A DNA stretch of 64,000 bases, taken from NCBI GenBank assembly GCA_020351875.1, contig CP070671.1:1995722-2059721 (forward strand), given 5' to 3'. The notes beneath the pieces were generated by a model. It saw only the letters and a list, made by a program, of their open reading frames with translations. It ran no database searches and was not told the DNA's origin. Source of the stretch: Chromatiales bacterium. GTDB taxonomy: Bacteria; Pseudomonadota; Gammaproteobacteria; Steroidobacterales; GCA-2729495. How positions within the stretch are numbered: position 1 is the first letter of the stretch; each line of letters opens with the position of its first letter. The position numbers and the translations under genes are program-made. This document shows positions 17,047 to 47,154 of the stretch, piece after piece.

Positions 17047-17544
17047 CTACACGCGCAGCTCGCGAATTTCCTGCTCGATCTCCGACGCGTTCCAGATGTC
17101 GTCGAACAGGCTCAGGTAACGCCGGGCTACCGCGGGTTCGTAGGTGTCGGCGATGCCTTCCCACTTGCGACCTTCCACGCGGTAGAGCAACGAGGTGTCG
17201 TCGGCGATCAGGTAGGCTTCACGGTGATCCTGGTAGTCAGGGTGCACGTTGCGGAATTCGATGTAGCTGTTCAGGCGCCGGCCGACTGACACGAGCCGAT
17301 TGCCGATTCGCACGGTCCGGCTGGGCTCTGAAATCAAGACGCGGATCTTCGCGTAGGGTTTGGCCAGCACGAGTCGCTTTGCCACGTCGAGGAACTTCGC
17401 ATGGTCGTAGATGCCCGGCTCCAGGTCGGGCGTATAAATCGATATCCACCGCTTTGCCTGGCTGGCGATTTCCGCCGCGGCGGCGCGGTTTTCCTCCTTG
17501 GAGGACAGCACCCAGCGGCGGCCTTGGATTCGTGTAGCTTCCAT
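17047..17544 (-). CDS. conserved hypothetical protein (no confident family assignment)
   Basis: 165-aa ORF in the slot between purB and nudix/mnmA, with normal coding composition. From memory, similar proteins occupy this position in other gammaproteobacteria. Confidence 0.6.
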   Translation of the reverse strand: MEATRIQGRRWVLSSKEENRAAAAEIASQAKRWISIYTPDLEPGIYDHAKFLDVAKRLVLAKPYAKIRVLISEPSRTVRIGNRLVSVGRRLNSYIEFRNVHPDYQDHREAYLIADDTSLLYRVEGRKWEGIADTYEPAVARRYLSLFDDIWNASEIEQEIRELRV

Positions 17545-17661: not shown

Positions 17662-20584
<2,923 letters not shown>

Positions 20585-20597
20585 CCGGGGCTCGGGC

Positions 20598-32768: not shown

Positions 32769-33557
32769 ATGGCCTCCAGGATCGCCGACCGGTTGCGTGC
32801 CGTCGCGGCAGTGCTGCTGCCGCTCGGCGTACGGCAGTGGCTGCGCGCGCAGCACCGCCGCTTTGGACTGCATCGCAAGCCGGTCGGCACGGTCGCGTTC
32901 GGCGATCTGCGGCGGCTGACGCCGATCAGCCGGGTGTTCGGTCTCGATCGTGGCTTGCCGATCATCGACCGTTACTACATTGATAAATTCCTCGCCAGTT
33001 GCGCCGACGACATTAGCGGCCGGGTCCTGGAGATGGGCGACGCCACCTACACCTGCCAGTTCGGTGGCGACCGGGTGACCCGGAGCGACGTGCTGCACTA
33101 TGTCGCCGGCAACCCAGAAGCGACCATCGTCGGCGATCTGACCGCAGCCGACCACATCCCGTCGGACAGCTTCGACTGCATCATCCTGACCCAGACGCTG
33201 CAGATGATCTTGGACGTCCGCGCGGCCCTGCACCACCTGCACCGCATATTGAAGCCCGGCGGCGTGTTGTTGGCGACATCACACGGGATCAGCCGCATCG
33301 CGCGGCGCGAAGGCATCGACCCCTGGGGTGAATACTGGCACTTCACCGCGCAGTCGACCCGGCATCTGTTCGGCGCCCTGTTCCCCGCCGACCACGTGCG
33401 CATCGTCACCTATGGGAATGTGTTGTCGGCGGCCGCGTCGCTGTATGGCCTGACCGCGGCGGATCTGACACGGGAAGAGCTGGACCATTGCGATTCCGAT
33501 TTCGAGGTGATCGTTGCGGTGCGGGCGCAGAAGCCGCTGGTCGGCGTCGCGCGTTGA
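32769..33557 (+). CDS. class I SAM-dependent methyltransferase (polysaccharide/LPS-locus type), not CmoB
   Basis: PISRVFGLDRGLPIIDRYYIDKFL...GRVLEMGD and ILKPGGVLL motifs. Confidence 0.7.
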   Translation: MASRIADRLRAVAAVLLPLGVRQWLRAQHRRFGLHRKPVGTVAFGDLRRLTPISRVFGLDRGLPIIDRYYIDKFLASCADDISGRVLEMGDATYTCQFGGDRVTRSDVLHYVAGNPEATIVGDLTAADHIPSDSFDCIILTQTLQMILDVRAALHHLHRILKPGGVLLATSHGISRIARREGIDPWGEYWHFTAQSTRHLFGALFPADHVRIVTYGNVLSAAASLYGLTAADLTREELDHCDSDFEVIVAVRAQKPLVGVAR

Positions 33558-33571
33558 CCGCATGCTCAGGA

Positions 33572-34666
33572 TCAGAAATAGATGTTGAGCTGCAGAAAAT
33601 ACAGGTCCGAATTCTGTTGATCGTTCTGGGAAATGCCGTCCCGGAAACGCGCCCCGGCGCGAAGCTGGGTGTAGGAGAACGGGAAGTATTCGTACACAAC
33701 GCTGACCCGGGTCTGCTCGTCGTCTGACACATCATCATCCGGGTCGAAGCCGCCGTAGGTCAGCTTCAGGTTGTGGCCCTTGGTAATCAGCCAGTTGCCT
33801 TCGGCGAAACCCACCCACTGCTTACGACCGCTCGGTCCGAGGCTGTCATCGTCAATGTAGTCCACTTCCCCGAGCCAGCTGATCGGGCCGGTGCGCAAGC
33901 CGGCGAACCCGCCGGTTACAAAACGGTCGCCCGCGTCGGCGTCGTTGTAATTCACGCTGACGCCAAGCTGCCAGATGTTCTGTACGTAACTGGCCAGCAA
34001 GCTGTACTGCTTGCCGTCATCGGTTTCAGCGCCCCCGGCGCCGCCGTTGGAAATCGCCAACTGGACTGACGCGGGACCCAGTTCGACACCGGCTTCCACA
34101 CCGTCGTCCGGAGAGTTCATGTTGATGCCGACCACCGAACGAATGAACTCCGTGTCGTCCTCGAGGCGGAGGCCGAAGGGCAGGTAGATCTGTCCGGCTT
34201 TCACATAGGCCTTGCGGTCCCAGAAATAGAGCAATGCGAAGGCTTCACGATTGTCCGACGATGGCGATACCTGCTGGTCCAGGTAAAACGTGAGGCGATC
34301 CTTGAGCAGCGGGACCGCGACATACAGGCGACCTTCCTGCACATCGAACTCGGTGTCATTGCCCTGGTTCGGCACTCGCGTATGGGTGAAGTCACCCCGA
34401 AAGTTGGCGCCGATGGTCAGGTACTCCATGACCTCGCCGTCCCAGAAGCCGTCTTCAGGGACGCGAACCGGCATGGTGACCTGGCCAAAGGCATCGCCAT
34501 AGGCGGTGCGCATGCCACCGCCCGTCTGATTCACGTGGCACGCGGAGCACTTGTTGCCGGTCATGACCGCAAAATAGGGTTCCGCCCCGGCGGGTGCCGA
34601 AAAAGCAGCCACCAGGAACAGCGCAGCTGACAGCAGGCAAAGGCGGGGGCAGGCGACGGCAGTCAT
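33572..34666 (-). CDS. outer-membrane beta-barrel with an N-terminal CXXCH haem motif (fused cytochrome-porin, Cyc2-like architecture)
   Basis: Start trimmed to the ATG at 34666, with GGAGGAG 10 nt upstream. Signal peptide, then CSACH at 34535..34549 (residues 40-44). About 320 aa of alternating beta-strand sequence ends in ..LQLNIYF, a C-terminal aromatic OMP signature. Confidence 0.65.
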   Translation of the reverse strand: MTAVACPRLCLLSAALFLVAAFSAPAGAEPYFAVMTGNKCSACHVNQTGGGMRTAYGDAFGQVTMPVRVPEDGFWDGEVMEYLTIGANFRGDFTHTRVPNQGNDTEFDVQEGRLYVAVPLLKDRLTFYLDQQVSPSSDNREAFALLYFWDRKAYVKAGQIYLPFGLRLEDDTEFIRSVVGINMNSPDDGVEAGVELGPASVQLAISNGGAGGAETDDGKQYSLLASYVQNIWQLGVSVNYNDADAGDRFVTGGFAGLRTGPISWLGEVDYIDDDSLGPSGRKQWVGFAEGNWLITKGHNLKLTYGGFDPDDDVSDDEQTRVSVVYEYFPFSYTQLRAGARFRDGISQNDQQNSDLYFLQLNIYF

Positions 34667-34700
34667 GCGTTTGCAACTCCTCCGGACTAATTGCTTACGG

Positions 34701-35903
34701 TCACGGTCTCGCGCCCGCATCGATCCAGGCGCGAATCGCGTCGATCGTGGACTGCGGCAACGGCCCGCCGCCGAGGGGCATCGGGAAGCCGATGACCTGG
34801 TTACCCTCGAGTTTGCGAATGATGTAGCTGTCGTCGGCGTTGAAGGGCTCAACGCGCAGCAACGGCGGTTCACGCTCGCTGGTGACATTAACCAGGCTGG
34901 CCAGGCTGGCCGCGGCGGAACTTAGATCCTGACCCGCCGGCAGGCTCGGCCCCTGCGGGCCTTCGTGGCAACCAGCCGTCGCACAGGTCGGTGTGAAGAC
35001 ATTGTCCTGGATCGAAGCCAGCGTTGGCAGCACTGCTGCCAACCGGAACCCGCTGGTGAAGTCGCCGCCCGCCGTGCCGTCTTCATCACCGTCCAGGAGT
35101 ACGCCGGTGCTGGACGCCAGCGCGGTAGCCCCCGTGCCGACCAGCCGGAGCTCGTAGTCGTCCGCGGCAAACGGCACGCCGGCCATGTCCAGCACGAGCA
35201 GGCGGTCGTTACCGGGCGACAGCGCTACGCTGGCCGGCGTAATCGTGACTTCGTTACCGTCGGCAAAGCTGCCGTCACCACCACTGCGCTGCAGGACCAC
35301 CGTCGCATTGCTGACCAGTGTGCCGTCCATGTCCTGTGTGAAGGTCGCCGTAATCTCGACAGGCAGCTGGTCCAGCACCGCGCCGTCTGCCGGATCGGTG
35401 GCCACCACCGTGGGTGGCCCGCCGCTGCCGGCACCGGGGAGGGCGCCGTCGGTGATCCACTGGCGGATCACGTCCGTGGTGGACTGCGGCACGAAAGGCG
35501 GCCCACTCAACGGCATACGCTGGCCGCCTGCCGCCGTGCCCTCGAGCTTCTGGATCAGGTAACTGGCGTCCGGGTCACCCGGTGCAACGCGCAGCAAAGC
35601 CGGCACCTGGTTACTCGCGATAGTCACGAGCAGTGCGTAGCTGGCGTATTCGCTGAGGTCCAGGCCTTCCGGCGCCGCGGCGCCCACATGGCACCCGGCG
35701 ACCGCGCAGGTGGGCGTAAACACATTCGCCTGGATCGAGTCGAAATTGGGGCCCAGGGGCACGTTGCCGCCACCTTCGGACAACGGTCGCCCGTTCTCGT
35801 CCAGTCCGTCACCGCTGCCTGCTGTGCAAGCAGCCAGCCCCAGCCAAGCCAGCGCGGCCGCGAACAACGCGCGCCATTGTGTCCGGTCGCCAGTCCGCTT
35901 CAT
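34701..35903 (-). CDS. lipoprotein with two duplicated C-X4-CH (putative haem c) modules flanking an Ig-like domain
   Basis: Lipobox LAAC. Module 1 is SIQANVFTPTCAVAGCHVG..., module 2 is SIQDNVFTPTCATAGCHEG..., and each ends in ..WI(T/D)(D/A)GA. The middle part, PPTVVATDPADGAVL...ITATFTQDMD, is bacterial Ig-like (Big_5/SbsA type). Confidence 0.7.
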   Translation of the reverse strand: MKRTGDRTQWRALFAAALAWLGLAACTAGSGDGLDENGRPLSEGGGNVPLGPNFDSIQANVFTPTCAVAGCHVGAAAPEGLDLSEYASYALLVTIASNQVPALLRVAPGDPDASYLIQKLEGTAAGGQRMPLSGPPFVPQSTTDVIRQWITDGALPGAGSGGPPTVVATDPADGAVLDQLPVEITATFTQDMDGTLVSNATVVLQRSGGDGSFADGNEVTITPASVALSPGNDRLLVLDMAGVPFAADDYELRLVGTGATALASSTGVLLDGDEDGTAGGDFTSGFRLAAVLPTLASIQDNVFTPTCATAGCHEGPQGPSLPAGQDLSSAAASLASLVNVTSEREPPLLRVEPFNADDSYIIRKLEGNQVIGFPMPLGGGPLPQSTIDAIRAWIDAGARP

Positions 35904-35987
35904 CCACGTCCCCCGAGTGGAAGCATTGCCCCGTTAGTCAGCGCCGGCGTCGCTTTGGTTCCCGCCGTCCGCCGGGCTCATTCTGGG

Positions 35988-36689
35988 CTATCTGCGGCAA
36001 GAATTCCTGTGTCGCCGCCGCGTCAGCCCGAAAGTGATCGTTAGCGCACACAAAGTTATTCCACTCAACGTGCTGCTGCCGCCGCGTCCCCCGCCGAGGC
36101 TCGACACCGGAACGATGGTCAGGTTACCGGGATCAAAACCGAGATCGGTGATGTATTCCTCACCAAAGTCCACCTCAACCAGCGGGTTCAGGCTCGGGAC
36201 GTTGTTCGAGTTCTGGATCCGGCCCGTGCCGTTGGCGTCGAGTTCCAGCAGCGCCGGGTTAAAGCGGCCGGTGTCGACTTCCCGCCCGTTGAACGTGTAG
36301 ACGATGCCCCCGCCCGCAAGCTCTGCGACCTGCAGCCCGTCGGTCAGTACCGCGTTGGGACTGACCGTGAAACTCAACGAGCTGCCCTGGGCGTAAAACT
36401 CGGTACCCGTCATCGAGCGCTGCAGGGCGAAGGAGGGAAAGCCCGACGGCGTGCCGGGTTCCAGCGTGCCCGAGACGTCGTAGTCGACCGTGGTGATGGC
36501 CGGGTTGTCGTAGGCCATGCCGGCGACGAGCTCCTCGCCCACGAGGATTCGGAACGAGAACGTGGTGACGTCGCTGAACACAGGCATGGCCTGGAAGCTC
36601 GGGCTCGCGAAACGGATCTGGAATGACTGGGCCACAACGGGCGACGACAAGGCTGCCAGGACCAGGACAATCAACAGGCGTACGTTCAT
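35988..36689 (-). CDS. secreted protein with a Gly-rich/TM/Arg-rich C-terminal sorting tag (GlyGly-CTERM-like)
   Basis: Signal peptide MNVRLLIVLVLAALSSPVVAQ. C-terminus SSLGGGRGGSSTLSGITLCALTITFGLTRRRHR. I recognise no domain in the body. Confidence 0.6.
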   Translation of the reverse strand: MNVRLLIVLVLAALSSPVVAQSFQIRFASPSFQAMPVFSDVTTFSFRILVGEELVAGMAYDNPAITTVDYDVSGTLEPGTPSGFPSFALQRSMTGTEFYAQGSSLSFTVSPNAVLTDGLQVAELAGGGIVYTFNGREVDTGRFNPALLELDANGTGRIQNSNNVPSLNPLVEVDFGEEYITDLGFDPGNLTIVPVSSLGGGRGGSSTLSGITLCALTITFGLTRRRHRNSCRR

Positions 36690-36760
36690 CGGTAAGAACT
36701 CCGGGAGTTCGGTGCGCGCCGGGCATGCGTTGGCAGCCTAACATCCCGATGCGGTTAGCC

Positions 36761-36790
36761 AAATGAAAAGAGCCGCCTGGTGGCGGCTCT
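36761..36790 (-). terminator. rho-independent terminator after the VWA gene
   Basis: Minus strand AGAGCCGCC-ACCA-GGCGGCUCU followed by UUUCAUUU. Confidence 0.7.
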
Positions 36791-36815
36791 GATCAAACGG
36801 TCGGCAGGCTCGGTG

Positions 36816-37775
36816 TCAGGTCGTACGGCGACGCCAGAAGGCGAGACCACCCAGCGCCGACAGGAACAACGGCAGCGCGCCCGGGATCGGGATTATTGCC
36901 AAGCCGAGTTCCACCTCGAGCTTATCTTCCAGCGTGGTTTCGAATTCAGCAAAATTCTCCGCCGTGACGAAGAAGCCGTCCGGGTCACCGGCTACCAGCG
37001 TGGCCAGGAAATCGGGATCCACGTCGCCGACGCCAATGGCATTGACCGTGACGCCGGCCGCTCGCGCGGCATCCGCTTCATCGTAAGCGAGCTGGCGATC
37101 GAGTATATTCTCCGGCGATGTCGGATCGACGTCCAGGCCATCCGAGTTGGGTTCCGTCGGCTCGCCATCCGTGGATATATCGATCACGAGCGCGTCGCCA
37201 TCGATGCCGTTGTTCAAAATCCCTGCGACCTCGCCTTCTTCGACATTGCAGAAGTCAAGTATTGGATTGATCTGCGGAAACATTTCCGAGCCCGGGCAGC
37301 CCGCCGTTCCACCGCTGGTGGCAATGTTTATCGCTTCGGATGTGTTGGTTTTTCCGCCCGGCTGCGGCAGCGTCCCGAACAAGACTCCGAAGTCCGCCGC
37401 TTCCTGGTCATTATTGAGTACGGTCCAGTCGAGGAAACTCGTCACGACGATGTCGAAAGTGACCGTTTCGAGAACGTTGTCGTCTTGATCCGAAATGGGA
37501 ACTGATCCTGCGACCGAGGAAAATACATAGGCCGCGACGGCGACCTGGTCGTACGGGCCTTTCGATACGATGTTCGTAAAAAAGTCGTTCTGGAAGATGT
37601 TCTGGTATGCGCCGATCTGCAGACCCCAGTCGGGACCGGACTCATTACCCCGCGGACCGGAGATACTGCTCGACCCGTCAATAATCAGGGCGAGTTCCAG
37701 CAGCGCAGCGTGCGACGCTGATGCGGAGAACATCAGGAGGGTGGCAACGACGGCCGGGATTACACGTTGACGCAT
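36816..37775 (-). CDS. secreted von Willebrand factor A-like protein with a VPLPA/PEP-CTERM-type sorting tag
   Basis: GGAGG RBS and a signal peptide. VWA-like blocks LALIIDGSSSI, GGKTNTSEAI, VIDISTDGEPT and GVTVNAIGVG. C-terminus IPIPGALPLFLSALGGLAFWRRRTT. Confidence 0.7.
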   Translation of the reverse strand: MRQRVIPAVVATLLMFSASASHAALLELALIIDGSSSISGPRGNESGPDWGLQIGAYQNIFQNDFFTNIVSKGPYDQVAVAAYVFSSVAGSVPISDQDDNVLETVTFDIVVTSFLDWTVLNNDQEAADFGVLFGTLPQPGGKTNTSEAINIATSGGTAGCPGSEMFPQINPILDFCNVEEGEVAGILNNGIDGDALVIDISTDGEPTEPNSDGLDVDPTSPENILDRQLAYDEADAARAAGVTVNAIGVGDVDPDFLATLVAGDPDGFFVTAENFAEFETTLEDKLEVELGLAIIPIPGALPLFLSALGGLAFWRRRTT

Positions 37776-37953
37776 GACTCGAACCTCCAGGTTCGTTTCT
37801 TATTCATTGCGTCAACGGTGCTTGAGCATTGAAAAGCAACAATTCTGGTGGCAGGGCGCAAGCGGGGCCGCCAATGTGGCCATTCCGGGGCCGGGCGTGG
37901 ATTATGTTCACTGTTCGACGCCGACAGGGCAGGGCAGGACGAAAGGCAGGCAG

Positions 37954-38427
37954 ATGGCTGATTCGGATCCGGACATACCGGCGGCAGGCACAAACAGCGC
38001 AATGGCCAAGTGGCTCAAGGCGCTGGTGCTGGCCTACTGGCTGGTCGGCACCCTGGACGTCGCCGCATCGCTGTTTCTGACGGATGCGCTGCCGGCCGGA
38101 TTGCGCGCATGGCTGGAGTCCCGATCCCAGGCGCCGGACCTGGAGGAGTGGGTGAAACGCGGCTGGATGATCGCGCTCCTCGCGGCCCTGATCGGCGGCA
38201 GCCTCGGTATCCTGCGGCAGGAGAACTGGGGTCGGTGGGTCTTCGCCGGGGCGAATGCGGCGATGTTCGCGTCTTACCCGCTGCTCGACGCGATGATTTA
38301 CACGTGGTTCGGCGGGCTGTTCGCCGACCTGTCCATGGTGCTGACCGGGGCCATTCTGCTGGCCTGTTTCGCGCCGGGGTCAGGCAAGCTCTTCAACCGC
38401 AGCCCAGGCGGACACCCCGGGTACTGA
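37954..38427 (+). CDS. multi-pass membrane protein, function unknown
   Basis: ORF 37774..38427 trimmed to the ATG at 37954. Three or four hydrophobic helices. An alternative ATG lies at 38002. Confidence 0.5.
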   Translation: MADSDPDIPAAGTNSAMAKWLKALVLAYWLVGTLDVAASLFLTDALPAGLRAWLESRSQAPDLEEWVKRGWMIALLAALIGGSLGILRQENWGRWVFAGANAAMFASYPLLDAMIYTWFGGLFADLSMVLTGAILLACFAPGSGKLFNRSPGGHPGY

Positions 38428-38479
38428 CGGGGCAGGCTGAAGGTCGATCACGAGACCAACCCCCCCGCCGCTCATCGCC

Positions 38480-38485
38480 TACAAT
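38480..38485 (+). promoter_or_regulatory. possible -10 box (TACAAT) for tRNA-Leu
   Basis: TACAAT lies 8 nt upstream of the tRNA 5' end. No convincing -35 element. Confidence 0.3.
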
Positions 38486-38493
38486 GCTCGCGG

Positions 38494-38807
38494 GCCCGGG
38501 TGGCGAAACTGGTAGACGCAAGGGACTTGATGCTTGAGCACCCGGTCGGAAAGCGGCCGGTGTGAATGGAGTCAAATTCGGGGAAACCTCAGCGCGTAAC
38601 GGCGGTGGCAATCCCGAGCTAAGCCACGGCATAGCCGTGGAAAGTGTAGAGACTTGACGGCTCCCGCCTAAGTGCCGGACAGCAACGGCATAGGGTGAAG
38701 AGAAAGTCCAGACCCCGAATGCCTGCGGGCAGCGGCGAAAGTCGTAGCGGGTACGAAAATCCCTCGGGGGCAACCCCGTGCCGGTTCGAATCCGGCCCCG
38801 GGCACCA
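38494..38807 (+). tRNA. leuZ: tRNA-Leu (anticodon UAA) interrupted by a group I intron; exons 38494..38528 and 38756..38807
   Basis: The joined exons give an 87-nt class II tRNA. Acceptor GCCCGGG/CCCGGGC, D-arm GCG..AAACTGGTAGA..CGC, anticodon stem AGGGA/TCCCT with loop CUUAAAA, long variable arm CGGGGGCAACCCCGTG, TTCGAAT T-loop, CCA. Confidence 0.9.
38529..38755 (+). ncRNA. group I self-splicing intron (cyanobacterial tRNA-Leu, IC3-like), 227 nt, no ORF
   Basis: Inserted between U34 and A35. P1 is CUU|GA-UGC-UUGAG with a U-G pair at the 5' splice site, and the intron ends in G. The blocks GGGGAAACCU, GGCAAUCCCGAGCUAAGCC, GUAGAGACUUGACGG, AGGGUGAAGAGAAAGUCCA and GCGAAAG parallel the Anabaena pre-tRNA-Leu intron as I remember it. 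Confidence 0.85.
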
Positions 38808-40492: not shown

Positions 40493-41131
40493 ATGATTAA
40501 TTTGTCTAATGACGCGATGCTGGTAGCCGATGAACTGACGCTGTGGCGCGGTGAGCTTTGCCTGTTCGATGGCCTGAGCGTGGCCGTGGAGCCCGGGCAG
40601 GCGCTGATGGTGCGTGGCCCGAACGGGGCGGGCAAGACCACGCTGCTGCGCGTGCTGTGCGGCCTCACGCGTCCGGAAGCGGGGCAAGTCCACTGGTGCG
40701 GCGAGCCGGTGGAGACCAGCGGCGAGCAGTTCGGCCGCGCCCTGGCCTATTGCGGCCACCAGACCGGACTGAAGGCTGACCTGAGCCTCGCGGGCAACCT
40801 GGCCTTTGCCGCGCGACTGGCAGGGCTCCACGGCGAGCCCTGGCGCGACATCATGGCCCAGCTGGGCCTCGCCAGCCGGGCCGACCTGCTCGTCCGCCAC
40901 CTGTCCGCGGGCCAGCAGCGGCGCGGGGCGCTGGTGCGGGCACTCATGGTGCCGGCGCAGCTGTGGGTCTTCGACGAACCATTCACGAACCTCGATGCAG
41001 CCGGCCGCGACTGGCTGGAAGCCCGGCTGGACGCCCACCTGGACCGTGGCGGGATGGCGATCATCGCGGCGCATCATGAACTGCGGCCCCGCCCGGGCCT
41101 GCGGACGCTGGAACTGGCGGAGGCCCGGTAA
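40493..41131 (+). CDS. ccmA: haem exporter ATP-binding protein
   Basis: Walker A GPNGAGKTT and ABC signature LSAGQQRR. First gene of the ccm operon. An alternative ATG lies at 40517. Confidence 0.9.
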   Translation: MINLSNDAMLVADELTLWRGELCLFDGLSVAVEPGQALMVRGPNGAGKTTLLRVLCGLTRPEAGQVHWCGEPVETSGEQFGRALAYCGHQTGLKADLSLAGNLAFAARLAGLHGEPWRDIMAQLGLASRADLLVRHLSAGQQRRGALVRALMVPAQLWVFDEPFTNLDAAGRDWLEARLDAHLDRGGMAIIAAHHELRPRPGLRTLELAEAR

Positions 41132-41133
41132 CC

Positions 41134-41802
41134 ATGGTCACGGTGGTTTCTGCCATCCTGCGGCGCGACCTGGAGCTCGGCTTCCGGCGTTGGGGCGACG
41201 TGGCCAGCCCGCTGATGTTCTTTGCGATCGTCACGGCGTTGTTCCCACTGGCCCTGTCGCCGGCCCGTGAAGTGTTGCAGGGGCTCGGCCCGGGGGTGCT
41301 GTGGATCGCTGCGCTGCTGGCCATGTTGCTGTCCCTGAACGCGCTGTTCCGGCAGGACCTGGAGGACGGCAGCATGGAACAGCTGGTCGTGGGCCCGCAC
41401 CCGTTGCCACTGATCATGCTGGCCAAAGCGCTGGCCCACTGGTTGCTGAGCGGTTTGCCGCTGGTCCTGCTGGCGCCGCTTCTGGCAGTCACCTACCATT
41501 TGCCGGCCGAGGGTGTGCGGGCCCTGTGTGTGACCTTGCTCCTTGGGACGCCGACCCTGAGCCTGCTAGGTTCAGTCGGCGCCGCGCTCACGGCTGGCGT
41601 GCGGCAGTCGGGTGGCTTGCTGGCCCTGCTGATACTGCCGCTGTGCCTGCCGGTGCTGATGTTCGGTAGCCGCGCTACCGCGCTGGCCGCCGAGGGTGAG
41701 GTCGTGACCGGGCCGCTGTACCTGCTCGGCGCACTGCTGGCTTTGGCCGTGACCCTCGTGCCCGCCACGTCGAGCGCCGCCATTCGAATCAGCCTGGATT
41801 GA
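41134..41802 (+). CDS. ccmB: haem exporter permease
   Basis: 222-aa polytopic membrane protein directly after ccmA, CcmB-like throughout. Confidence 0.9.
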   Translation: MVTVVSAILRRDLELGFRRWGDVASPLMFFAIVTALFPLALSPAREVLQGLGPGVLWIAALLAMLLSLNALFRQDLEDGSMEQLVVGPHPLPLIMLAKALAHWLLSGLPLVLLAPLLAVTYHLPAEGVRALCVTLLLGTPTLSLLGSVGAALTAGVRQSGGLLALLILPLCLPVLMFGSRATALAAEGEVVTGPLYLLGALLALAVTLVPATSSAAIRISLD

Positions 41803-41823
41803 GTCCGAGAGAGTCGACACGCG

Positions 41824-42579
41824 ATGAAACTGCCCACCTGGTTCCACAAGCTCGGCTCGCCGCCGCATTTCTATCGGCTGGCGACGTTGCTGACACCGTG
41901 GTTTTACGTGCCGGCCGTCTTGCTGTTGCTGGCGGGTACCTACGGCGGGCTCGTGCTGGCGCCGGCCGACTATCAGCAGGGCGATGGTTTTCGCATCATT
42001 TACGTGCACGTGCCGAGCGCCTACCTGTCGACCATGGTCTATGGCGTGATGGCCGTCGCGTCCGCCATCGGCCTGATCTGGCGCATGAAGCTGGCCCACT
42101 CCGTGGCAGCCGCAGCCGCGCCGATCGGGGCGTGGTTCACTTTTCTCGCGCTCGTCACCGGCGCCATCTGGGGCAAGCCCATGTGGGGCACTTACTGGGA
42201 GTGGGACCCGCGGCTGACCTCCGAGCTGATCCTGCTGTTCATCTATCTCGGCTACATCAGCCTGCGCGGCGCCTTCGACGACCGCGACAAGGCCGACCGC
42301 GCCTGCGCAGTGCTGGCACTGGTCGGTGTGGTGAATCTGCCGATCATTCACTATTCGGTGATCTGGTGGAGCAGCATCCACCAGGGCCCAACCATCAAGA
42401 AGCTGGATGCACCCTCTATCACCGGCGACATGCTGTGGCCCCTGCTGGTGATGATCCTGGCCTACACGCTGATTTTCGCCGCCCTGTTGCTGCAGCGCGT
42501 CCGGGCGGAAGTGCTGGACCGGGAGCGGAATGCGCGCTGGGTCTTGGATATCATGGGCGCACCGGCACAGGGAAACTGA
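41824..42579 (+). CDS. ccmC: haem exporter / haem lyase-associated protein
   Basis: WWD motif WGKPMWGTYWEWDPRL. Confidence 0.92.
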   Translation: MKLPTWFHKLGSPPHFYRLATLLTPWFYVPAVLLLLAGTYGGLVLAPADYQQGDGFRIIYVHVPSAYLSTMVYGVMAVASAIGLIWRMKLAHSVAAAAAPIGAWFTFLALVTGAIWGKPMWGTYWEWDPRLTSELILLFIYLGYISLRGAFDDRDKADRACAVLALVGVVNLPIIHYSVIWWSSIHQGPTIKKLDAPSITGDMLWPLLVMILAYTLIFAALLLQRVRAEVLDRERNARWVLDIMGAPAQGN

Positions 42580-42582
42580 CCG

Positions 42583-42750
42583 GTGAGTGATTTTCTCGCG
42601 ATGGGCGGCTACGCCGAATACGTCTGGAGTACCTTCGGGCTCACGGCGGTCGTCCTGGTTATCAATATGGTCGGTGCCCGGCGCCGGCTGCGAAATTCGC
42701 TGCGCGAAGCCGGCTTGCGGGCCGCGCGGCAAAGGAGACAGGCGTCATGA
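42583..42750 (+). CDS. ccmD: haem exporter subunit CcmD (55 aa; absent from the ORF track)
   Basis: Hand translation from the GTG at 42583 gives VSDFLAMGGYAEYVWSTFGLTAVVLVINMVGARRRLRNSLREAGLRAARQRRQAS. FLAMGGYAxYVW is the CcmD signature. The stop overlaps the ccmE ATG (ATGA). An alternative ATG lies at 42601. Confidence 0.85.
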   Translation: MSDFLAMGGYAEYVWSTFGLTAVVLVINMVGARRRLRNSLREAGLRAARQRRQAS

Positions 42751-43202
42751 AACCCAGGAAACAACGGATGGCAATAGTTGCAGTCATCCTGGTGGGCGTA
42801 GCCATCGCAGTGGGGCTGACGCTGCAGGCCTTCGAAGAGGGTGTGAGCTTTTTCTACAGTCCGAGCGAGTTGCTCGCCGGTGACGCGCCGCAAGGCCGCA
42901 AGGTGCGCATGGGCGGGCTGGTGCTCGAAGGCAGCGTGGTTCGCGAACCGGGCTCCATGGAAGTGATCTTCGACGTCACCGACATGGAAAACACCGTGCA
43001 GGTCAGCTACACGGGTGTGTTGCCCGACCTGTTCCGCGACGGGCAGGGGGTTGTAGCGCACGGCGTGATGCAGCCCGACGGGCAATTCGTTGCCGAAAAG
43101 ATCCTGGCCAAGCACGACGAGAACTACATGTCCCCGGAAGTGGCCGACATGCTCGCCGAAAAGGGTCACCCGCAAGGCGCGCCGGACGTCGCCGCCAACT
43201 GA
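42747..43202 (+). CDS. ccmE: cytochrome c maturation haem chaperone
   Basis: N-terminal anchor, OB fold and the haem-binding HxxxY motif (AKHDENY). Confidence 0.93.
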   Translation: MKPRKQRMAIVAVILVGVAIAVGLTLQAFEEGVSFFYSPSELLAGDAPQGRKVRMGGLVLEGSVVREPGSMEVIFDVTDMENTVQVSYTGVLPDLFRDGQGVVAHGVMQPDGQFVAEKILAKHDENYMSPEVADMLAEKGHPQGAPDVAAN

Positions 43203-43209
43203 GTCGAGC

Positions 43210-45171
43210 ATGATCCCCGAACTCGGACAGCTCTGCCTGGCGCTGGCCTTCTGTCTGGCCGCGATCCAGGGCGTACTCCCGCTGGTCGGTGCCGGCAGCC
43301 AGCGCTACCGGGCCTGGACTCGCGTCGCAACGCCGGCCGCTGCCGGCCACTTTGTCTTTGTCGCCATCGCGTTCGGGCTGCTCACGTGGTCGTTCCTCGC
43401 GAACGACTTCTCGGTGCTGTACGTGGCCAGCAATTCCAACAGCCAGTTGCCCACGCTCTACCGCGTGGCCGCGGTGTGGGGCGGCCACGAAGGTTCACTG
43501 CTGCTGTGGGCGCTGGTGCTCGGCTGCTGGACGGTCGCAGTGCTGATTTCCAGCCGGTCACTGCCGGAAGCGATGGCCGCGCGCATCATCGGCGTGATGG
43601 GCGTCGTGAGCGCCGGCTTCCTGCTGTTCATCATGATTACATCCAACCCGTTTTTGCGGCTGGACCCGATCCCGCTGGACGGTAACGACCTGAACCCGCT
43701 GCTGCAGGATCCGGCCATGGCCCTGCACCCGCCGATGCTCTACATCGGCTACGTCGGCTTTTCGGTGGCCTTCGCGTTTGCGGTGGCCGCACTGCTGGCG
43801 GGCAAAGTCGACCGCGACTGGGCGCGCTGGGCCCGGCCGTGGACCACCGCGGCCTGGACCTTCCTGACCGTGGGCATTGCACTGGGCAGCTGGTGGGCCT
43901 ACTACGAGCTCGGCTGGGGCGGCTGGTGGTTCTGGGACCCGGTGGAAAACGCATCCTTCATGCCGTGGCTGGTGGGCACCGCCCTGATTCATTCGCTGGC
44001 CGTGACGGAAAAACGCGGCCTGTTCAAGGGCTCCACGCTGCTGCTGGCCATCGCGGCCTTTGGCCTGAGTTTGCTGGGCACCTTTCTCGTGCGCTCGGGC
44101 ATTCTCGTGTCGGTGCATTCCTTCGCCAGTGACCCGACCCGTGGATTGTTTATTCTCGCGTTTCTGGCGCTGGTGGTCGGTGGCGCGCTGACTTTGTACG
44201 CCGTCCGGGCGGGTACCCTCGACCGCGAAGTCGGCTTTGCGCCGCTGTCGCGCGAGACTTTCCTGCTGATCAACAACATCCTGCTCAGCATCGCGGCCGG
44301 GCTGGTGCTGTTTGGCACCATCGCGCCGCTGGTGCTCGAGGGTTTTAACCTCGGCAAGATTTCGGTGGGCCCACCGTATTTCGAAATCGCATTCCTGTTC
44401 CCGACCTTGCCGCTGGTCCTCGCCGTCGGTGTCGGCATGCACACGGCCTGGCGTTCGGCCGATGGCAGCGCGCTGGCGCGTCGCCTGCGCTGGCCCGCGC
44501 TGATCGCCGTGGTCGGCGGCATCGCGCTGCCATGGCTGGTCTACGGCAGCCAGAGTGTGCTGACGGCGGTCGGCGTTGCGGCCGGGCTGTGGCTCGTCGG
44601 CAGCGCAGTCCTGGATCCCGTCGCGAAGCTGCTCGGGCGCGGGCCGCGACTAACCCGCGGCGTGATTGGCATGCAGCTGGCCCATTTCGGCCTCGGGCTG
44701 TTCGTGCTGGGTGTCACCGTGGTGTCCACCTACACGGTGGAAACCGACCAGCGGCTCGCGCTGGGTGAAACGATCGAGGTGTCGGACTTCCAGGTGACCT
44801 TCCGCGATCTGCAGGCCGTCGAGGGCCCCAACTACCAGGCCGTGCGCGCCGAAATGCACCTGCGCCGCGGGGAGCGTTCGGTTGCGCTGCTGTTTCCCGA
44901 AAAACGGATTTACCGCGTGCAAACTTCGCCGATGACCGAGGCCGCCATTGACGGTCGCTGGCACCGCGACGTGTTCATTGCACTGGGCGACGATTTGGGG
45001 GCCGGGGCTTGGAGCGTGCGCATCCAGTACAAGCCCCTGATCCGTTTCATCTGGCTCGGCTGCCTGTTGATGGCCTTCGGCGGGCTGGTCGCAATCTCCG
45101 ATCCACGTTATCGCCGGGCGCGCCAGCAGGCGGCCGCCGCCGATGACACCGCGCAAGCCAGCGCGAGCTGA
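43210..45171 (+). CDS. ccmF: cytochrome c haem lyase subunit
   Basis: Start trimmed to the ATG at 43210 (MIPELGQLCLALAF). WWD motif GWGGWWFWDPVENASFMPW. Confidence 0.93.
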   Translation: MIPELGQLCLALAFCLAAIQGVLPLVGAGSQRYRAWTRVATPAAAGHFVFVAIAFGLLTWSFLANDFSVLYVASNSNSQLPTLYRVAAVWGGHEGSLLLWALVLGCWTVAVLISSRSLPEAMAARIIGVMGVVSAGFLLFIMITSNPFLRLDPIPLDGNDLNPLLQDPAMALHPPMLYIGYVGFSVAFAFAVAALLAGKVDRDWARWARPWTTAAWTFLTVGIALGSWWAYYELGWGGWWFWDPVENASFMPWLVGTALIHSLAVTEKRGLFKGSTLLLAIAAFGLSLLGTFLVRSGILVSVHSFASDPTRGLFILAFLALVVGGALTLYAVRAGTLDREVGFAPLSRETFLLINNILLSIAAGLVLFGTIAPLVLEGFNLGKISVGPPYFEIAFLFPTLPLVLAVGVGMHTAWRSADGSALARRLRWPALIAVVGGIALPWLVYGSQSVLTAVGVAAGLWLVGSAVLDPVAKLLGRGPRLTRGVIGMQLAHFGLGLFVLGVTVVSTYTVETDQRLALGETIEVSDFQVTFRDLQAVEGPNYQAVRAEMHLRRGERSVALLFPEKRIYRVQTSPMTEAAIDGRWHRDVFIALGDDLGAGAWSVRIQYKPLIRFIWLGCLLMAFGGLVAISDPRYRRARQQAAAADDTAQASAS

Positions 45172-45177
45172 CCCATC

Positions 45178-45711
45178 ATGATTCGCTACGCTGCGCCGAT
45201 CGTCATCTTCGGCCTGATGGTGGTGGTCTTCTGGCTGGGCCTCGGCCGCGACCCGTCCGTCGTGCCGTCGCCGCTGGTTGGCAAACCGGCGCCGGCCTTC
45301 ACGCTGCCGCGCCTCGACGCACCCGACCAGCAACTCGCCGCCAGCGACCTGCGCGGCAAAGTGTGGTTGCTGAACGTGTGGGCGACGTGGTGCGTTGGCT
45401 GCCGCCAGGAACACGACGCGTTGCTCGCGATTGCCGCGTCGGGTGAAGTGCCCATTTACGGCCTGAACTGGAAAGACGACTCGTTGCAGGCACGCGCGTG
45501 GCTGGAGCAGCTCGGTAATCCCTACGTCGCGACCGGTGTCGATGCCGATGGCCGGGTGGCGATCGACTGGGGCGTGTACGGCGCACCGGAAACCTTCCTG
45601 ATCGGTCCGGACGGGACCGTCCTGCACAAACACATTGCGCCGATCACGTGGGACATCTTTGCCAGGGACTTCCTGCCGCTGATTACTGTCGCCCGGGGCA
45701 CGGGCTCATGA
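45178..45711 (+). CDS. ccmG: thiol:disulfide interchange protein DsbE/CcmG
   Basis: Thioredoxin fold with WATWCVGC and the GVYGAPETF motif. Confidence 0.92.
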   Translation: MIRYAAPIVIFGLMVVVFWLGLGRDPSVVPSPLVGKPAPAFTLPRLDAPDQQLAASDLRGKVWLLNVWATWCVGCRQEHDALLAIAASGEVPIYGLNWKDDSLQARAWLEQLGNPYVATGVDADGRVAIDWGVYGAPETFLIGPDGTVLHKHIAPITWDIFARDFLPLITVARGTGS

Positions 45712-46139
45712 GGCATTGGCTCACCTTGTTGCTGGTGGGACTGTGGCTGGCTGCGCCCGCATTGGCCATCGAGGCGGAGTTGCCGATCGCCGACCCCGAA
45801 CAGCGCGAACTCTACGACCGGCTCACGAACGAGACGCGCTGTCTCGTCTGCCAGAATCAGACCATTGCCGATTCCAACGCGGCCCTGGCCGTGGACCTGC
45901 GGCGGGAAATTCGCGGCATGGTGGAAGCCGGCCAGGCGGAAGACGAAATCAAGACCTTTCTGACCGACCGTTACGGCGAATTCGTGCTGTACCGGCCACG
46001 CTGGTCTGCTGCCACCGCCGTGTTGTGGCTCGCACCCGCGGTGCTGGTGCTGCTGGGCGCGCTCTGGCTGTGGCGCATCGTGCAGAGGCGCGCAGCGCTG
46101 CCGGTCACCAGCGAAGAACAGGACGCCCTGGATGCCTGA
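45708..46139 (+). CDS. ccmH: cytochrome c maturation protein CcmH
   Basis: The ATG at 45708 overlaps the ccmG stop (ATGA). LRCxxC motif TRCLVCQNQTIADSNA. Confidence 0.9.
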   Translation: MRHWLTLLLVGLWLAAPALAIEAELPIADPEQRELYDRLTNETRCLVCQNQTIADSNAALAVDLRREIRGMVEAGQAEDEIKTFLTDRYGEFVLYRPRWSAATAVLWLAPAVLVLLGALWLWRIVQRRAALPVTSEEQDALDA

Positions 46140-47154
46140 CGGACTGCCGGTCTTCCTGGTGATTTCCATCATCGCCGCGTTACTCGCCGCGGCGCTGGTT
46201 GCGATTCCGCTGTTGCGCCAGGGCGGCGCACCCGTGACGGCGTTCGTGCTGGCCCTTGGCATACCAGCCGGCGCGGTGTTCCTGTACCTGGCGGGCAGCA
46301 ACTATGGCTGGACGCCGGCGACCACGCAAACGGCAGCGCAGGGGGGCATTCCGGATCTCAATGCCGCGCTCGCGCAACTCGAGGCCCGGCTGCAGGCCCA
46401 GCCCGATGATCGCGACGGCTGGCTATTGCTCGGCAACACCTACCTGCAGATGCAGCGGCCGGCTGATGCCGAAACCGCCTTTGGCCAGGCACTGGCCCTC
46501 AGCGGCGGCGAGGATCCCACAGCGAAACTGGGCGTTGCTGAAGCCCTGGTGCTGCAGGATCGGAACGCGCTGACCGGGCAGGCCGGTACGATGATCGAAG
46601 AAGTCCTGGCCACAGAACCGGACAATGCGAAGGCCCTGTGGTACGGCGGGTTGGCCGCGCTCGCGCGGGGCGACCGGCCGACGGTCCAGGCGCGCTGGGA
46701 ACGCATGCTGAACCAGGACATTCCGGACCCGGTCCGCCAGGCCGTGACCCAGCAAATGCAAAGCCTGGGTTTCGCCGCCGACACGGCCACCGCGGCGGCG
46801 CCTGCACAGACGGCCATCGACGTGCGCGTGTCAGTGAGTGATGCGCTGGAGGCGCAGCTCGCCCCGGACGCGATGCTGTTTCTCGTCGCGCGCGATGCGA
46901 ATGCGGCGGGCGGACCGCCGGTAGCGGCCGTGCGCGAGCAGGCCGCCGGATTGCCGCGCATGCTGCGCATCAGTGACGCGAACGCGATGCTGGCCGGGCG
47001 CAACCTGTCGCAGTTGCAAAACGTGCGGCTGATTGCCCGGGTATCGAACGGTGGGGGCGCGATTGCGCAGCCCGGTGACGTTTTCGGGGAAGCGACCTGG
47101 GCGCCCGGCGAGGGTGCGGTGACGATTGTGATGGACCAGGTCGTCGAGCCCTGA
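46132..47154 (+). CDS. ccmI: c-type cytochrome biogenesis protein CcmI (TPR)
   Basis: Two N-terminal TM helices, then TPR repeats (GWLLLGNTYLQMQRPADAETAFGQAL). Last gene of the operon. Confidence 0.85.
   Translation: MPDGLPVFLVISIIAALLAAALVAIPLLRQGGAPVTAFVLALGIPAGAVFLYLAGSNYGWTPATTQTAAQGGIPDLNAALAQLEARLQAQPDDRDGWLLLGNTYLQMQRPADAETAFGQALALSGGEDPTAKLGVAEALVLQDRNALTGQAGTMIEEVLATEPDNAKALWYGGLAALARGDRPTVQARWERMLNQDIPDPVRQAVTQQMQSLGFAADTATAAAPAQTAIDVRVSVSDALEAQLAPDAMLFLVARDANAAGGPPVAAVREQAAGLPRMLRISDANAMLAGRNLSQLQNVRLIARVSNGGGAIAQPGDVFGEATWAPGEGAVTIVMDQVVEP

Follow-up and report, generated by a model that had tools for sequence, protein, structure and literature searches.

Fe(II) is oxidized by Cyc2, a fused cytochrome-porin of acidophilic and neutrophilic iron oxidizers. 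Cyc2, compared here on the basis of the Acidithiobacillus ferrooxidans protein and of Cyc2PV-1 from Mariprofundus ferrooxydans, is predicted to be a 16-strand OprO/OprP-like porin and is recognized by FAR[Q/K][T/Y] and PXL motifs together with a minimum length of 365 aa (Keffer et al., 2021; PMC8406198). FoxE from Rhodobacter ferrooxidans SW2 is likewise an Fe(II) oxidoreductase, soluble and periplasmic, built from contiguous Met-swapped domains and encoded in foxEYZ. A further set of systems, MtrCAB, PioAB/MtoAB and the Geobacter Pcc complexes, shares with the locus described below the logic of an outer-membrane barrel combined with c-type cytochromes, one of them a lipoprotein, that are encoded by adjacent genes. 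The barrels of MtrCAB, PioAB and Pcc, for which about 26 strands (MtrB) and a predicted number of about 20 (Geobacter porin-like proteins) apply, sheathe a separate deca- or octahaem protein.

Gene organization of the locus

The window, i.e., the entire stretch of 64,000 nucleotides analyzed, contains four consecutive genes on the minus strand that encode a VWA-type protein of 319 aa (36816-37775), a secreted 233-aa protein with a hydrophobic and basic C-terminal tail (35988-36689), a putative dihaem c-type outer-membrane lipoprotein of 400 aa in which two haem modules flank an Ig-like domain (34701-35903) and a putative monohaem, Cyc2-like cytochrome-porin of 364 aa (33572-34666). Two further assemblies of the organism, with gene calls made independently, contain proteins of exactly these lengths, and inspection of the sequence places a signal peptide at the N-terminus of all four products. 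The porin starts with the ATG at 34666; the mechanical open reading frame extends to 34888. A spacer of 34 nt (34667-34700, minus strand) separates the stop codon of the lipoprotein gene from the start of the porin gene and contains the ribosome-binding site GGAGGAG (34677-34683). A terminator-like hairpin, consisting of a nine-pair stem with seven G-C pairs and a subsequent T-run, is located 3' of the VWA gene (36769-36790, minus strand), while the genes for the 233-aa protein and the lipoprotein are separated by no predicted terminator. Haem motifs are present in no gene of the 64 kb besides those for lipoprotein and porin. The genome possesses a complete Ccm system, with ccmA, B, C, D, E, F, G, H and I all present at 40493-47154.

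The first-pass annotation of this DNA had listed four consecutive, exported-looking minus-strand genes, the short gap with its strong ribosome-binding site, the terminator behind the VWA gene and a full ccmABCDEFGHI operon nearby, all of which are confirmed. Its identification of the first gene product as a VWA protein holds as well, as DUF1194 (42 bits) and VWA (26.3 bits) are both matched above the Pfam cut-offs. The C-terminal sorting tags that it assigned to two of the proteins are apparent by inspection, including a PEP-CTERM-like tail on the VWA product, but reach no model cut-off: VPLPA-CTERM scored 16.1 bits against a required 25.35, and the tail of the 233-aa protein is matched by no GlyGly-CTERM model.

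The putative cytochrome-porin and its relation to Cyc2

The porin precursor begins with a signal peptide visible in the sequence (MTAVACPRLCLLSAALFLVAAFSAPAGA; 34583-34666, minus strand), for which cleavage is predicted after AGA; in the family alignment the N-terminus is variable up to an invariant A-EPY. The mature N-terminal haem peptide (EPYFAVMTGNKCSACHVNQTGGGMR.., aa 29-77; 34436-34582, minus strand) contains the N-terminal CXXCH noticed earlier in the form of CSACH at aa 40-44 (34535-34549, minus strand), twelve residues past the predicted cleavage site. The signature AEPYFAV..G.KC..CH follows the signal peptide as an invariant peptide and is kept in 117 members of a library of representatives at 50% identity. 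C40, C43, H44, G49-G51 and R53 are invariant in 117 sequences. Exactly one CXXCH was counted in 119 of 120 homologues, and the invariant columns of the 117 sequences include neither a Met nor a second His as conserved distal haem ligand. The expected barrel occupies the remainder of the protein (aa 78-364; 33575-34435, minus strand), where DSSP assigns 16 long strands to the region of residues 83-363 in an AF2 model with a pLDDT of 86.8 and a pTM of 0.82. Foldseek matches for this model are 16-strand porins, e.g., OmpF, PorB, Omp32 and OprO, and the Pfam family Porin_O_P is matched by 57 of 117 family members. Acidic loops of the barrel are highly conserved (PFG.RLEDD, FDPDDDV.EDE).

For comparison we used 81 full-length metagenome proteins that carry the published Cyc2 motif, a Cyc2-like set that is selected by motif rather than curated. 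Aligned with this set by hhalign, the porin family yielded probabilities of 97.8% with signal peptides and of 96.5% (local) and 98.1% (global) without them. With the haem peptide by itself, 96.9% was reached against its Cyc2-like counterpart (E 1.5e-10), and the barrel by itself showed no significant similarity to Cyc2-like barrels (probability 5%), so that the homology signal rests on about 30 columns. Within these, the spacing of A-x-P-x-F-A-x-x-x-3 aa-CXXCH is identical in both groups. Porin and Cyc2 also have in common the signal peptide, the position of the haem peptide at the mature N-terminus, the single CXXCH and the 16-strand OprO/OprP-like barrel. The haem His of the porin is residue 16 of the mature protein, and H16 is also designated as the haem His in a preprint that models Cyc2 of A. 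ferrooxidans, although the numbering scheme used there may be a different one.

On the other hand, the family has V[R/K]xGxK in place of R[Q/K][T/Y] and N-x-T-G-G-G-x-R after the haem motif in place of PXL, and the window porin with its 364 aa falls just under the 365-aa minimum for Cyc2. Family members measure about 345-408 aa as opposed to 405-542 aa for the Cyc2-like proteins, and their barrels are far more conserved (mean column identity 53-61%) than Cyc2-like barrels. Furthermore, a haem lipoprotein gene almost always precedes the porin gene, whereas canonical Cyc2-like loci are without one; the role of the partner can therefore not be borrowed from Cyc2. Judged from its sequence, the porin is a distant relative of Cyc2. 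The resemblance suspected in the first-pass annotation thus goes beyond analogy, as homology to Cyc2-type proteins can be detected in the N-terminal haem peptide. The annotation's remark that the components are unlike those of described systems is correct only by half, since the porin is a divergent Cyc2 relative.

The putative haem lipoprotein

The signal peptide of the lipoprotein (35826-35903, minus strand) ends in the lipobox LAAC, in which the lipidated Cys26, invariant in 77 orthologues, is followed by Thr. Under the +2 Asp sorting rule of the Lol pathway, the lack of Asp at this position suggests that the protein is sorted to the outer membrane. A conserved tether follows (TAGSGDGLDENGRPLSEGGGNVP; 35757-35825, minus strand), in which G29, G31, L34, G38, R39, P40 and E43 are invariant and pLDDT falls below 50 at residues 29-34; we infer, tentatively, that it docks the lipoprotein to the porin. 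As described before, the protein contains two C-X4-CH modules and an Ig-like domain, all encoded on the minus strand. Haem module 1 (aa 50-156; 35436-35756) has CAVAGCH at aa 66-72 (35688-35708) and an invariant Met130-Pro131, and haem module 2 (aa 291-400; 34704-35033) has CATAGCH at aa 307-313 (34965-34985) and an invariant Met375-Pro376. The beta-sandwich between them (aa 163-288; 35040-35417) belongs to the Ig-like Big_5 type with CopC-like fold (Pfam 28.9 bits, cut-off 23.6), is modelled with pLDDT above 90 and resembles CopC-like domains in Foldseek with TM values of 0.78-0.83, while no His, Met or Cys is conserved and no metal ligands occur among its invariant residues.

CXXCH, CX4CH and even CX3CH interchange at both motif positions of the lipoprotein family while the Cys and His residues and the downstream Met-Pro stay fixed, a behavior expected of haem c sites. 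The domain type of the haem module is PSCyt1 (PF07635, planctomycete cytochrome C domain), which is matched by 67 of the 77 orthologues; Cytochrome_CBB3 is matched by 21. The window lipoprotein itself reaches no cytochrome model in Pfam, probably because both of its motifs are CX4CH, and the database record with 100% identity bears no more specific name than 'Ig-like domain-containing protein [Chromatiales bacterium]'. The NCBIfam models for the SO2930 dihaem cytochrome and the LIC11213 lipoprotein gave weak partial matches; PSCyt1 and these two families are all without a known function and without a partner porin.

The best match in the PDB is FoxE (5MAB), with a whole-sequence E-value of 3e-4 and alignment of both modules, although the similarity per domain is weak (i-Evalues of 0.13 and 22). 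Both proteins consist of two tandem c-type haem modules with the pattern C..CH ... RMP.G ... WI..GA. Unlike FoxE, the lipoprotein is lipid-anchored, its modules are split by the 125-aa Ig-like domain and single-module versions exist. Homologues of FoxY or FoxZ do not adjoin the pair. From the Mtr, Pio and Pcc systems the pair differs in that its barrel has 16 strands and a single haem site of its own, and in that the partner has only one to three haems.

Conservation of the lipoprotein-porin pair

The family is large, with 504 species and 2116 representative clusters as lower bounds, and more than 1281 homologues of the porin were found. Porins and lipoproteins of this kind go by no other database names than 'hypothetical protein', 'porin' and 'Ig-like domain-containing protein'. 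A lipoprotein homologue is encoded directly upstream of the porin gene and on the same strand in 72 of the 76 evaluable species genomes. Estimated from the ends of tblastn alignments, the two genes lie no more than 90 nt apart in 65 of the 73 loci with an upstream match, and some of the genes overlap. The pairing is kept in very distant family members, in which the lipoprotein is reduced to one haem module (157-197 aa); in Woeseia, it is enlarged to roughly 1000 aa with many Ig repeats and three haem motifs. Distant members carry a gene for a dihaem c4-type cytochrome next after the pair, and the cassettes adjoin COX2 or cytochrome-bd-like and further cytochrome c genes, a context that echoes the cyc2-cyc1-cox arrangement of the A. 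ferrooxidans rus operon.

The link between haem lipoprotein and cytochrome-porin proposed in the first-pass annotation is thereby upheld: the two are a real and conserved functional pair, built like a redox module of the outer membrane, and the genes at 34701-35903 and 33572-34666 are best explained as a two-gene operon. Cultured genera named as carriers of the pair are Steroidobacter, Peristeroidobacter and Povalibacter, aerobic or denitrifying heterotrophs that are not known as iron oxidizers, which speaks against a role in Fe(II) oxidation.

Alternative interpretations

The same annotation had gone further and joined all four genes, tentatively, into one candidate cluster for extracellular electron transfer or metal oxidation; in the full form of this reading, the nearby ccm operon would serve the cluster. 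The genes are indeed adjacent, equally oriented and exported-looking, and no predicted terminator parts the 233-aa gene from that for the lipoprotein. However, the VWA and 233-aa genes accompany the pair in none of the 82 related loci, including the closest relative (79% identity), whose 4.4 kb of upstream sequence contains neither; of the four genes, only those for lipoprotein and porin stay together. The 233-aa family (630 homologues) is found without the pair in unrelated contexts, one Woeseiaceae chromosome carrying a homologue about 220 kb away from it, a terminator stands behind the VWA gene, and ccm genes are not among the conserved neighbors. The synteny survey largely refutes the four-gene cluster, which we regard as scarcely credible; VWA gene, 233-aa gene and ccm operon are chance neighbors of the pair. 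It is also very unlikely that the motifs do not bind haem at all, which would leave a plain diffusion channel with a metal-binding or disulfide-forming N-terminus next to an Ig-domain surface protein. Such a reading could draw on the failure of the window lipoprotein to reach a Pfam cytochrome model, on the unusual CX4CH spacing and on low AF2 confidence around the lipoprotein motifs, but low pLDDT is expected there because the cofactor is missing from the model. Joint invariance of C, C and H in about 120 homologues in each family, the PSCyt1 and Cytochrome_CBB3 matches of orthologues with canonical CXXCH and a Met-Pro axial-ligand motif conserved at the right distance all argue for haem.

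Sequence cannot fix the direction of electron flow, and respiratory electrons might instead leave the cell by way of the lipoprotein and then the haem of the porin, with Fe(III), Mn(IV), humic substances or an electrode as extracellular acceptors, or the pair might serve reductive iron acquisition. The Ig repeats and third haem motif of the Woeseia lipoprotein, as if reaching away from the membrane, would suit this idea, as would the soil and sediment habitats of the cultured heterotrophic carriers, where oxygen limitation is common, and the fact that metal reducers typically have lipoprotein cytochromes at the outer membrane, e.g., MtrC/OmcA and OmcB. We nevertheless consider outward flow unlikely, given that Cyc2 and FoxE, the two closest characterized relatives, are both Fe(II) oxidases, that only three haems, one of them in the barrel, would be available where known reducers span the membrane with ten or more, and that the c4-type cytochromes and oxidase genes adjoining distant members correspond to the layout of oxidizing chains. 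Improbable, too, is a redox module that does not act as a metal conduit across the membrane. In this case the porin would admit a different small substrate (e.g., Mn2+, nitrite, peroxide, sulfide or thiosulfate, or a compound resembling quinones), to be oxidized or reduced by the haems of porin or lipoprotein where the outer membrane faces inward, and the reaction would detoxify the substrate or supply additional electrons. An open, substrate-binding haem would fit a porin that lacks a conserved distal ligand, specific binding is suggested by the Ig/CopC-like domain and by the strong conservation of the barrel loops, and the genes surrounding the pair vary within the close family, so that nothing ties it to one pathway. 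Against this stand the specific relationship of the haem peptide to Cyc2, the Ig-like domain devoid of conserved metal ligands and the lack of any peroxidase, sulfur or nitrogen oxidoreductase signature in Pfam/NCBIfam.

Proposed function

Taken together, the pair probably moves electrons across the outer membrane. We favor, with some reservation, a reading in which it makes up an uncharacterized electron conduit of the outer membrane that resembles Cyc2 and has the lipoprotein as its dedicated relay, Fe(II) oxidation being the most likely use. The first about 45 residues of the mature porin (EPYFAV..G.KC..CH..) would receive one covalent haem c via the Ccm system and would be followed by the 16-strand barrel with its many conserved acidic residues. 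The partner would be anchored in the outer membrane and carry two His/Met-type c-haem modules of the PSCyt1/FoxE kind, held apart by the Ig-like spacer. A small reduced substrate, most likely Fe2+, would meet the porin haem through or at the barrel, the electron would then pass to the lipoprotein haems at the periplasmic face, and soluble c-type cytochromes may then take it up and deliver it to a terminal oxidase or reductase.

Arrangement of the four genes

The first-pass annotation had described four consecutive minus-strand genes for exported proteins. ORFs were recovered for all four: a VWA gene (36816-37775, 319 aa, VWA/DUF1194), a gene for a 233-aa protein without family match (35988-36689), a lipoprotein gene (34701-35903, 400 aa) and a porin gene (33572-34666, 364 aa), and inspection revealed a signal peptide on each product. 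Gene callers applied to two further assemblies of this organism gave the same four lengths. The mechanical porin ORF reaches 34888; translation truly begins at the ATG at 34666, 34 nt past the stop codon of the lipoprotein gene, with GGAGGAG ahead of it at 34677-34683. Haem-type motifs reside where they had been claimed, i.e., CAVAGCH and CATAGCH in the lipoprotein and CSACH in the porin, and beyond these two proteins neither such motifs nor multihaem proteins were found in the whole 64-kb window. A terminator-like hairpin does follow the VWA gene on its 3' side (36769-36790), and the haem attachment operon noted nearby is a complete Ccm system with all genes of ccmABCDEFGHI present (40493-47154). 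The C-terminal sorting tags proposed for the VWA and 233-aa proteins hold as resemblances by eye but not as matches to curated models: the VWA protein scored 16.1 bits with the VPLPA-CTERM model (cut-off 25.35), and the GlyGly-CTERM model did not match the 233-aa protein.

Both flanks of the window are of housekeeping character, one with uvrC, pgsA, two tRNAs, a lipid A acyltransferase and methyltransferases, the other with genes for an HPP protein and an FHA-AAA protein as well as ccm. An Rfam scan of the window returned the two tRNAs and no further match, and a promoter scan of 33000-38500 yielded no sigma-70-like promoter. Between 36001 and 38000 GC content dips to 0.605 vs. about 0.65, and third-position GC amounts to 0.70 in the VWA gene and 0.74 in the porin ORF, with about 0.82 in most genes; these anomalies may hint at a separate history of this stretch. 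Divergently from the VWA gene and overlapping its start by 2 nt runs a 217-aa ORF (37774-38427, plus strand); its third-position GC is good (0.79), membrane-like segments are predicted in it, and it matched no family. Two long ORFs without Pfam match at 15304-17289 (plus strand, 661 aa) and 19343-20785 (minus strand, 480 aa) have GC values of 0.81 at first and 0.70 at third positions, compared with roughly 0.65 and 0.82 in neighboring genes, and may be spurious or mis-framed rather than genes.

Occurrence and conservation of the lipoprotein-porin pair

Homologs of the porin number more than 1281 at 90% clustering, and a profile search of 1.84 billion representatives yielded 2116 porin clusters at E <= 1e-3. 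A scan of one genome per species detected relatives in at least 504 species, from which the best 80 loci were kept. These stem mostly from Steroidobacteraceae, Woeseiaceae and unclassified Gammaproteobacteria, the closest relative among them being encoded in a 'Chromatiaceae' MAG (79% identity). Among 72,556 plasmids, tblastn gave no match to the porin.

When the four window proteins were compared with related porin loci by tblastn, 72 of the 76 loci with enough upstream sequence proved to have a lipoprotein homolog immediately ahead of the porin and in the same orientation, mostly with a gap of at most 90 nt, such that the pair is indeed kept together across genomes. The VWA and 233-aa proteins, on the other hand, occurred in none of 82 related loci, and the proposal that all four genes form one cluster largely falls with this result; we consider it most improbable. 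The 233-aa family has at least 630 homologs in unrelated genomic contexts, and in one Woeseiaceae chromosome its gene is situated about 220 kb from the porin pair. On these grounds of synteny, a functional link between the pair and the VWA and 233-aa genes was rejected. Hosts of the 233-aa family include Woeseiaceae and other Gammaproteobacteria, with neighbors that vary between genomes; the window protein itself combines an N-terminal signal peptide with a Gly-rich, hydrophobic and Arg-rich C-terminal tail and is without match in Pfam and NCBIfam. Clustering of neighboring ORFs in the 80 loci revealed no other universally conserved neighbor, ccm included, and a functional link to the ccm operon was likewise dismissed. 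As only the lipoprotein and porin genes are co-conserved, the unit is a two-gene cassette.

The porin and its probable relation to Cyc2

Pfam and NCBIfam gave at most weak or partial matches for the window porin and lipoprotein. An alignment of 117 porin homologs is unusually conserved (mean column identity 53%), and its invariant start, A-EPY.A...G.KC..CH.N.TGGG.R, coincides with the predicted signal-peptidase site. This signature was seen again in 117 members taken from the library of 50%-identity representatives that had been searched by profile. Exactly one CXXCH is present in 119 of 120 homologs, and C40, C43 and H44 are invariant. The barrel expected of a porin was recovered by AlphaFold2 (pLDDT 86.8, pTM 0.82), with short N-terminal helices that carry the CXXCH followed by 16 long strands. 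Foldseek placed the model among classical 16-strand porins including OprO (4RJW), and 57 of 117 family members matched Pfam Porin_O_P. The alignment of the 117 homologs contains no conserved Met or second His as a candidate sixth haem ligand. Asp and Glu abound in the conserved loops (RLEDD, FDPDDDV.EDE), a composition that, as far as can be judged from the alignment, would suit cation binding. A function as phosphate porin was considered unlikely, since conserved residues are largely acidic and the haem motif is invariant.

Cyc2 is defined by a signal peptide, one CXXCH and a 16-strand OprO/P-like porin, with AXPXFAR[Q/K][T/Y] before and PXL after the haem site, and the pipeline built on this definition drops proteins that are shorter than 365 aa or lack PXFAR (Keffer et al., PMC8406198). 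The window porin has the signal peptide, evident from its sequence, as well as the single CXXCH, and its modeled 16-strand barrel resembles OprO/OprP. It deviates from Cyc2 in the motif before the haem site, which reads AEPYFAVMT in the window and AEP[YFW][LFIM]A[VI][RKQ] in the family consensus, such that upstream of CXXCH the two have no more in common than A-x-P-x-[F/L]-A and the spacing; Arg at the Cyc2 position, six residues before the Cys, is present in none of the 117 representative sequences. Instead of PXL four residues after CXXCH, the family has VN[PRM][TS]GGG[KM]R (VNQTGGGMR in the window). With its 364 aa the window porin also falls just below the 365-aa minimum of Keffer et al. 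and FeGenie, as do many members of 345-364 aa.

For comparison, the Cyc2 motif was back-translated and metagenomes were scanned, which gave 120 loci, with a 9-nt gap shared by all matches listed. From these loci 81 full-length ORFs of 405-542 aa were extracted, a Cyc2-like set that is chosen by motif and is not curated Cyc2. In the examples listed, this set has the PxL motif after the haem site. Its A-x-P-x-F-A-R-x-x-3 aa-CXXCH spacing equals that of the window family and places the haem His at mature position 16 in both; a modeling preprint on Cyc2 from A. ferrooxidans also names H16 as the haem His, in a passage that gives no numbering scheme. Profile-profile comparison of the window family with the Cyc2-like set by hhalign resulted in 97.8% probability (E 7e-13) with signal peptides included, 96.5% (E 1e-9) for a local alignment of the mature parts and 98.1% for a global one, colinear through the barrel. 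The haem peptide alone reached 96.9% (E 1.5e-10) and the barrel alone a non-significant 5%, the signal thus being confined to about 30 columns. A home-made HMM of the Cyc2-like set, motif-selected as it is, scored the window porin with 35.9 bits. Taken together, the family is best seen as a putative remote relative of Cyc2 that departs from the formal definition in three points, i.e., Arg-[Q/K]-[T/Y], PXL and length. A homolog of the lipoprotein was found in none of the canonical Cyc2-like loci.

The lipoprotein

The lipoprotein shares 100% identity with a protein whose sole annotation is 'Ig-like domain-containing protein [Chromatiales bacterium]'. It has the lipobox LAAC with Thr next to the lipidated Cys. 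According to the usual Lol rule, such a residue at position +2 leads to anchoring in the outer membrane. In 120 homologs CXXCH and CX4CH freely interchange at both motif positions (one of each in 87, two CXXCH in 17, two CX4CH in 11). The Cys and His residues do not vary, nor does a Met-Pro that follows about 58 residues later. Pfam searches with 77 orthologs detected PSCyt1 in 67, Cytochrome_CBB3 in 21 and Big_5 in 65. The best match in a PDB profile search was FoxE, the dihaem Fe(II) oxidoreductase of Rhodobacter ferrooxidans, with a whole-sequence E-value of 3e-4 and weak per-domain E-values. Both modules align with the two c-type haem domains of FoxE, and His/Met ligation is predicted. Motif exchange, invariance and the PSCyt1 and FoxE matches support the assignment of both Cys/His motifs as probable haem c sites and make it very unlikely that these motifs serve some purpose other than haem binding. 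The resemblance to FoxE ends at gene organization: foxEYZ includes FoxY (a PQQ propeller) and FoxZ (an inner-membrane transporter), whereas the window pair is surrounded by methyltransferases, the 233-aa protein and the VWA protein, and no conserved neighbor of FoxY or FoxZ type was found across the 80 loci.

In the AlphaFold2 model of the lipoprotein (pLDDT 83), a beta-sandwich lies between two helical modules. Foldseek results were dominated by the central Ig domain, with nothing for the haem modules. The sandwich is similar in fold to CopC (TM 0.78-0.83) but stays below the Pfam cut-off (20.9 vs. 23.3), and CopC-type copper binding was rejected because the sandwich has no conserved ligands, residues 160-290 being devoid of conserved His, Met or Cys. 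The segment GSGxGLDxNGRPxxEGG following the lipidated Cys is nearly invariant, yet modeled with low confidence, and we suspect that this tether docks on the porin.

Variants of the pair in other genomes

In many Steroidobacteraceae the lipoprotein adjacent to the porin comprises one haem module and the Ig domain, and a second module is located on a divergently transcribed CHRD/Big_7 protein, as if it had split off from the lipoprotein. One example is a 487-aa protein with Big_7 and CHRD domains at locus L001 (5524-6987, minus strand), with an equivalent position in about 28-30 Steroidobacteraceae loci, alongside which genes for an ECF sigma factor, an S8 peptidase and a Gcw_chp outer-membrane protein recur; its C-terminal haem module is 47-56% identical to the second module of the window lipoprotein. 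A Woeseia MAG (L004, 2526-5930, plus strand) encodes a lipoprotein of roughly 1000 aa upstream of the porin that starts with the module-Ig-module arrangement, continues with many Ig-like repeats and ends with a third haem motif (CDTCH ... EMPLG).

In three remote members of the family the cassette has three genes, for a lipoprotein with one haem module (157-197 aa), the porin and a dihaem c4-type cytochrome (L205, 264-3022 and 3182-6565; L209, 5506-13752; L210, 5491-8008). The wider contexts of the cassette are respiratory. L205 also encodes three further proteins ending in the same haem module as well as COX2, and L209 a cytochrome-bd-subunit-I-like protein, more cytochromes c and EB_dh domains. 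In the porin-family member of L209 (6001-7752, plus strand, 583 aa), haem peptide and barrel are separated by an insertion of about 230 aa with many Cys and charged residues. The single-module lipoprotein of L210 (5491-5997, plus strand) has CX3CH (CASRCH) at the haem position, and thus CXXCH, CX3CH and CX4CH all occur at one site within the lipoprotein family. From the variants across loci it follows that the constant core is a haem porin plus at least one PSCyt1/FoxE-type module on a lipoprotein.

Proposed function

Conserved operon structure, invariant haem motifs, the barrel fold, the probable kinship with Cyc2 and with the modules of FoxE, and the completeness of the Ccm system in the genome are the observations from which we start, and on balance they lead us to favor, with somewhat better than even confidence, an electron conduit, in the first place one for Fe(II) oxidation. 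The Ccm system would attach one haem to the N-terminal peptide of the porin and two to the lipoprotein. By analogy with proposals for Cyc2, the porin haem would lie within or at the barrel and oxidize an external reductant, most likely Fe2+; the electron would then pass, on the periplasmic side of the outer membrane, to the haems of the lipoprotein and from there via soluble cytochromes to an oxidase or denitrification enzyme. Such a conduit would differ from MtrAB, PioAB and MtoAB, in which a large barrel (about 26 strands in MtrB) surrounds a separate deca- or octahaem cytochrome, as opposed to 16 strands and a partner with two haem motifs in the window.

Against the proposed conduit weigh the shortness of the homology signal and the lack of a conserved distal ligand in the porin alignment. 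In addition, the named cultured genera that carry the pair are heterotrophs not known as iron oxidizers. Electrons might flow in the opposite direction with the pair reducing extracellular acceptors, which we regard as unlikely; to the same low degree we entertain that the pair acts on another small substrate or in detoxification.

Implications

Literature searches returned no description of the porin/lipoprotein family, and database names are generic throughout. 'Cyc2-homologues' detected with a custom HMM were found to be expressed in Woeseiaceae by metaproteomics (PMC6850669); these may or may not belong to the window family. What we rate as new is a Cyc2-like cytochrome-porin with a dedicated haem-lipoprotein partner and not a new principle. 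The interest of the family lies in its size, its hosts and its likely invisibility to standard iron-gene filters. For neutrophilic iron oxidation, Cyc2 serves as the chief marker gene in genomes and metagenomes. A probably related family of this size (at least 504 species genomes; 2116 clusters at 50% identity) would go unseen by published filters, and standard ones would probably miss it because it fails their motif and length requirements.

Host lineages of the family dominate marine sediments and are common in soils. Should the family carry electrons across the outer membrane, then the spread among microbes of redox capacity for iron, or for other extracellular substrates, is underestimated. 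The lipoprotein partner offers a simple candidate answer to the question of how a one-haem porin passes electrons to the periplasm. This question is directly addressable since cultured carriers exist (Steroidobacter, Peristeroidobacter, Povalibacter). Tentatively, and with rather less than even confidence, we propose that the pair represents an unrecognized sister system of Cyc2 with an obligatory haem-lipoprotein relay, which may enable very abundant 'heterotrophic' Gammaproteobacteria, namely Woeseiaceae of marine sediments and Steroidobacteraceae of soils, to use extracellular Fe(II), or else other minerals or metals, as redox substrates.
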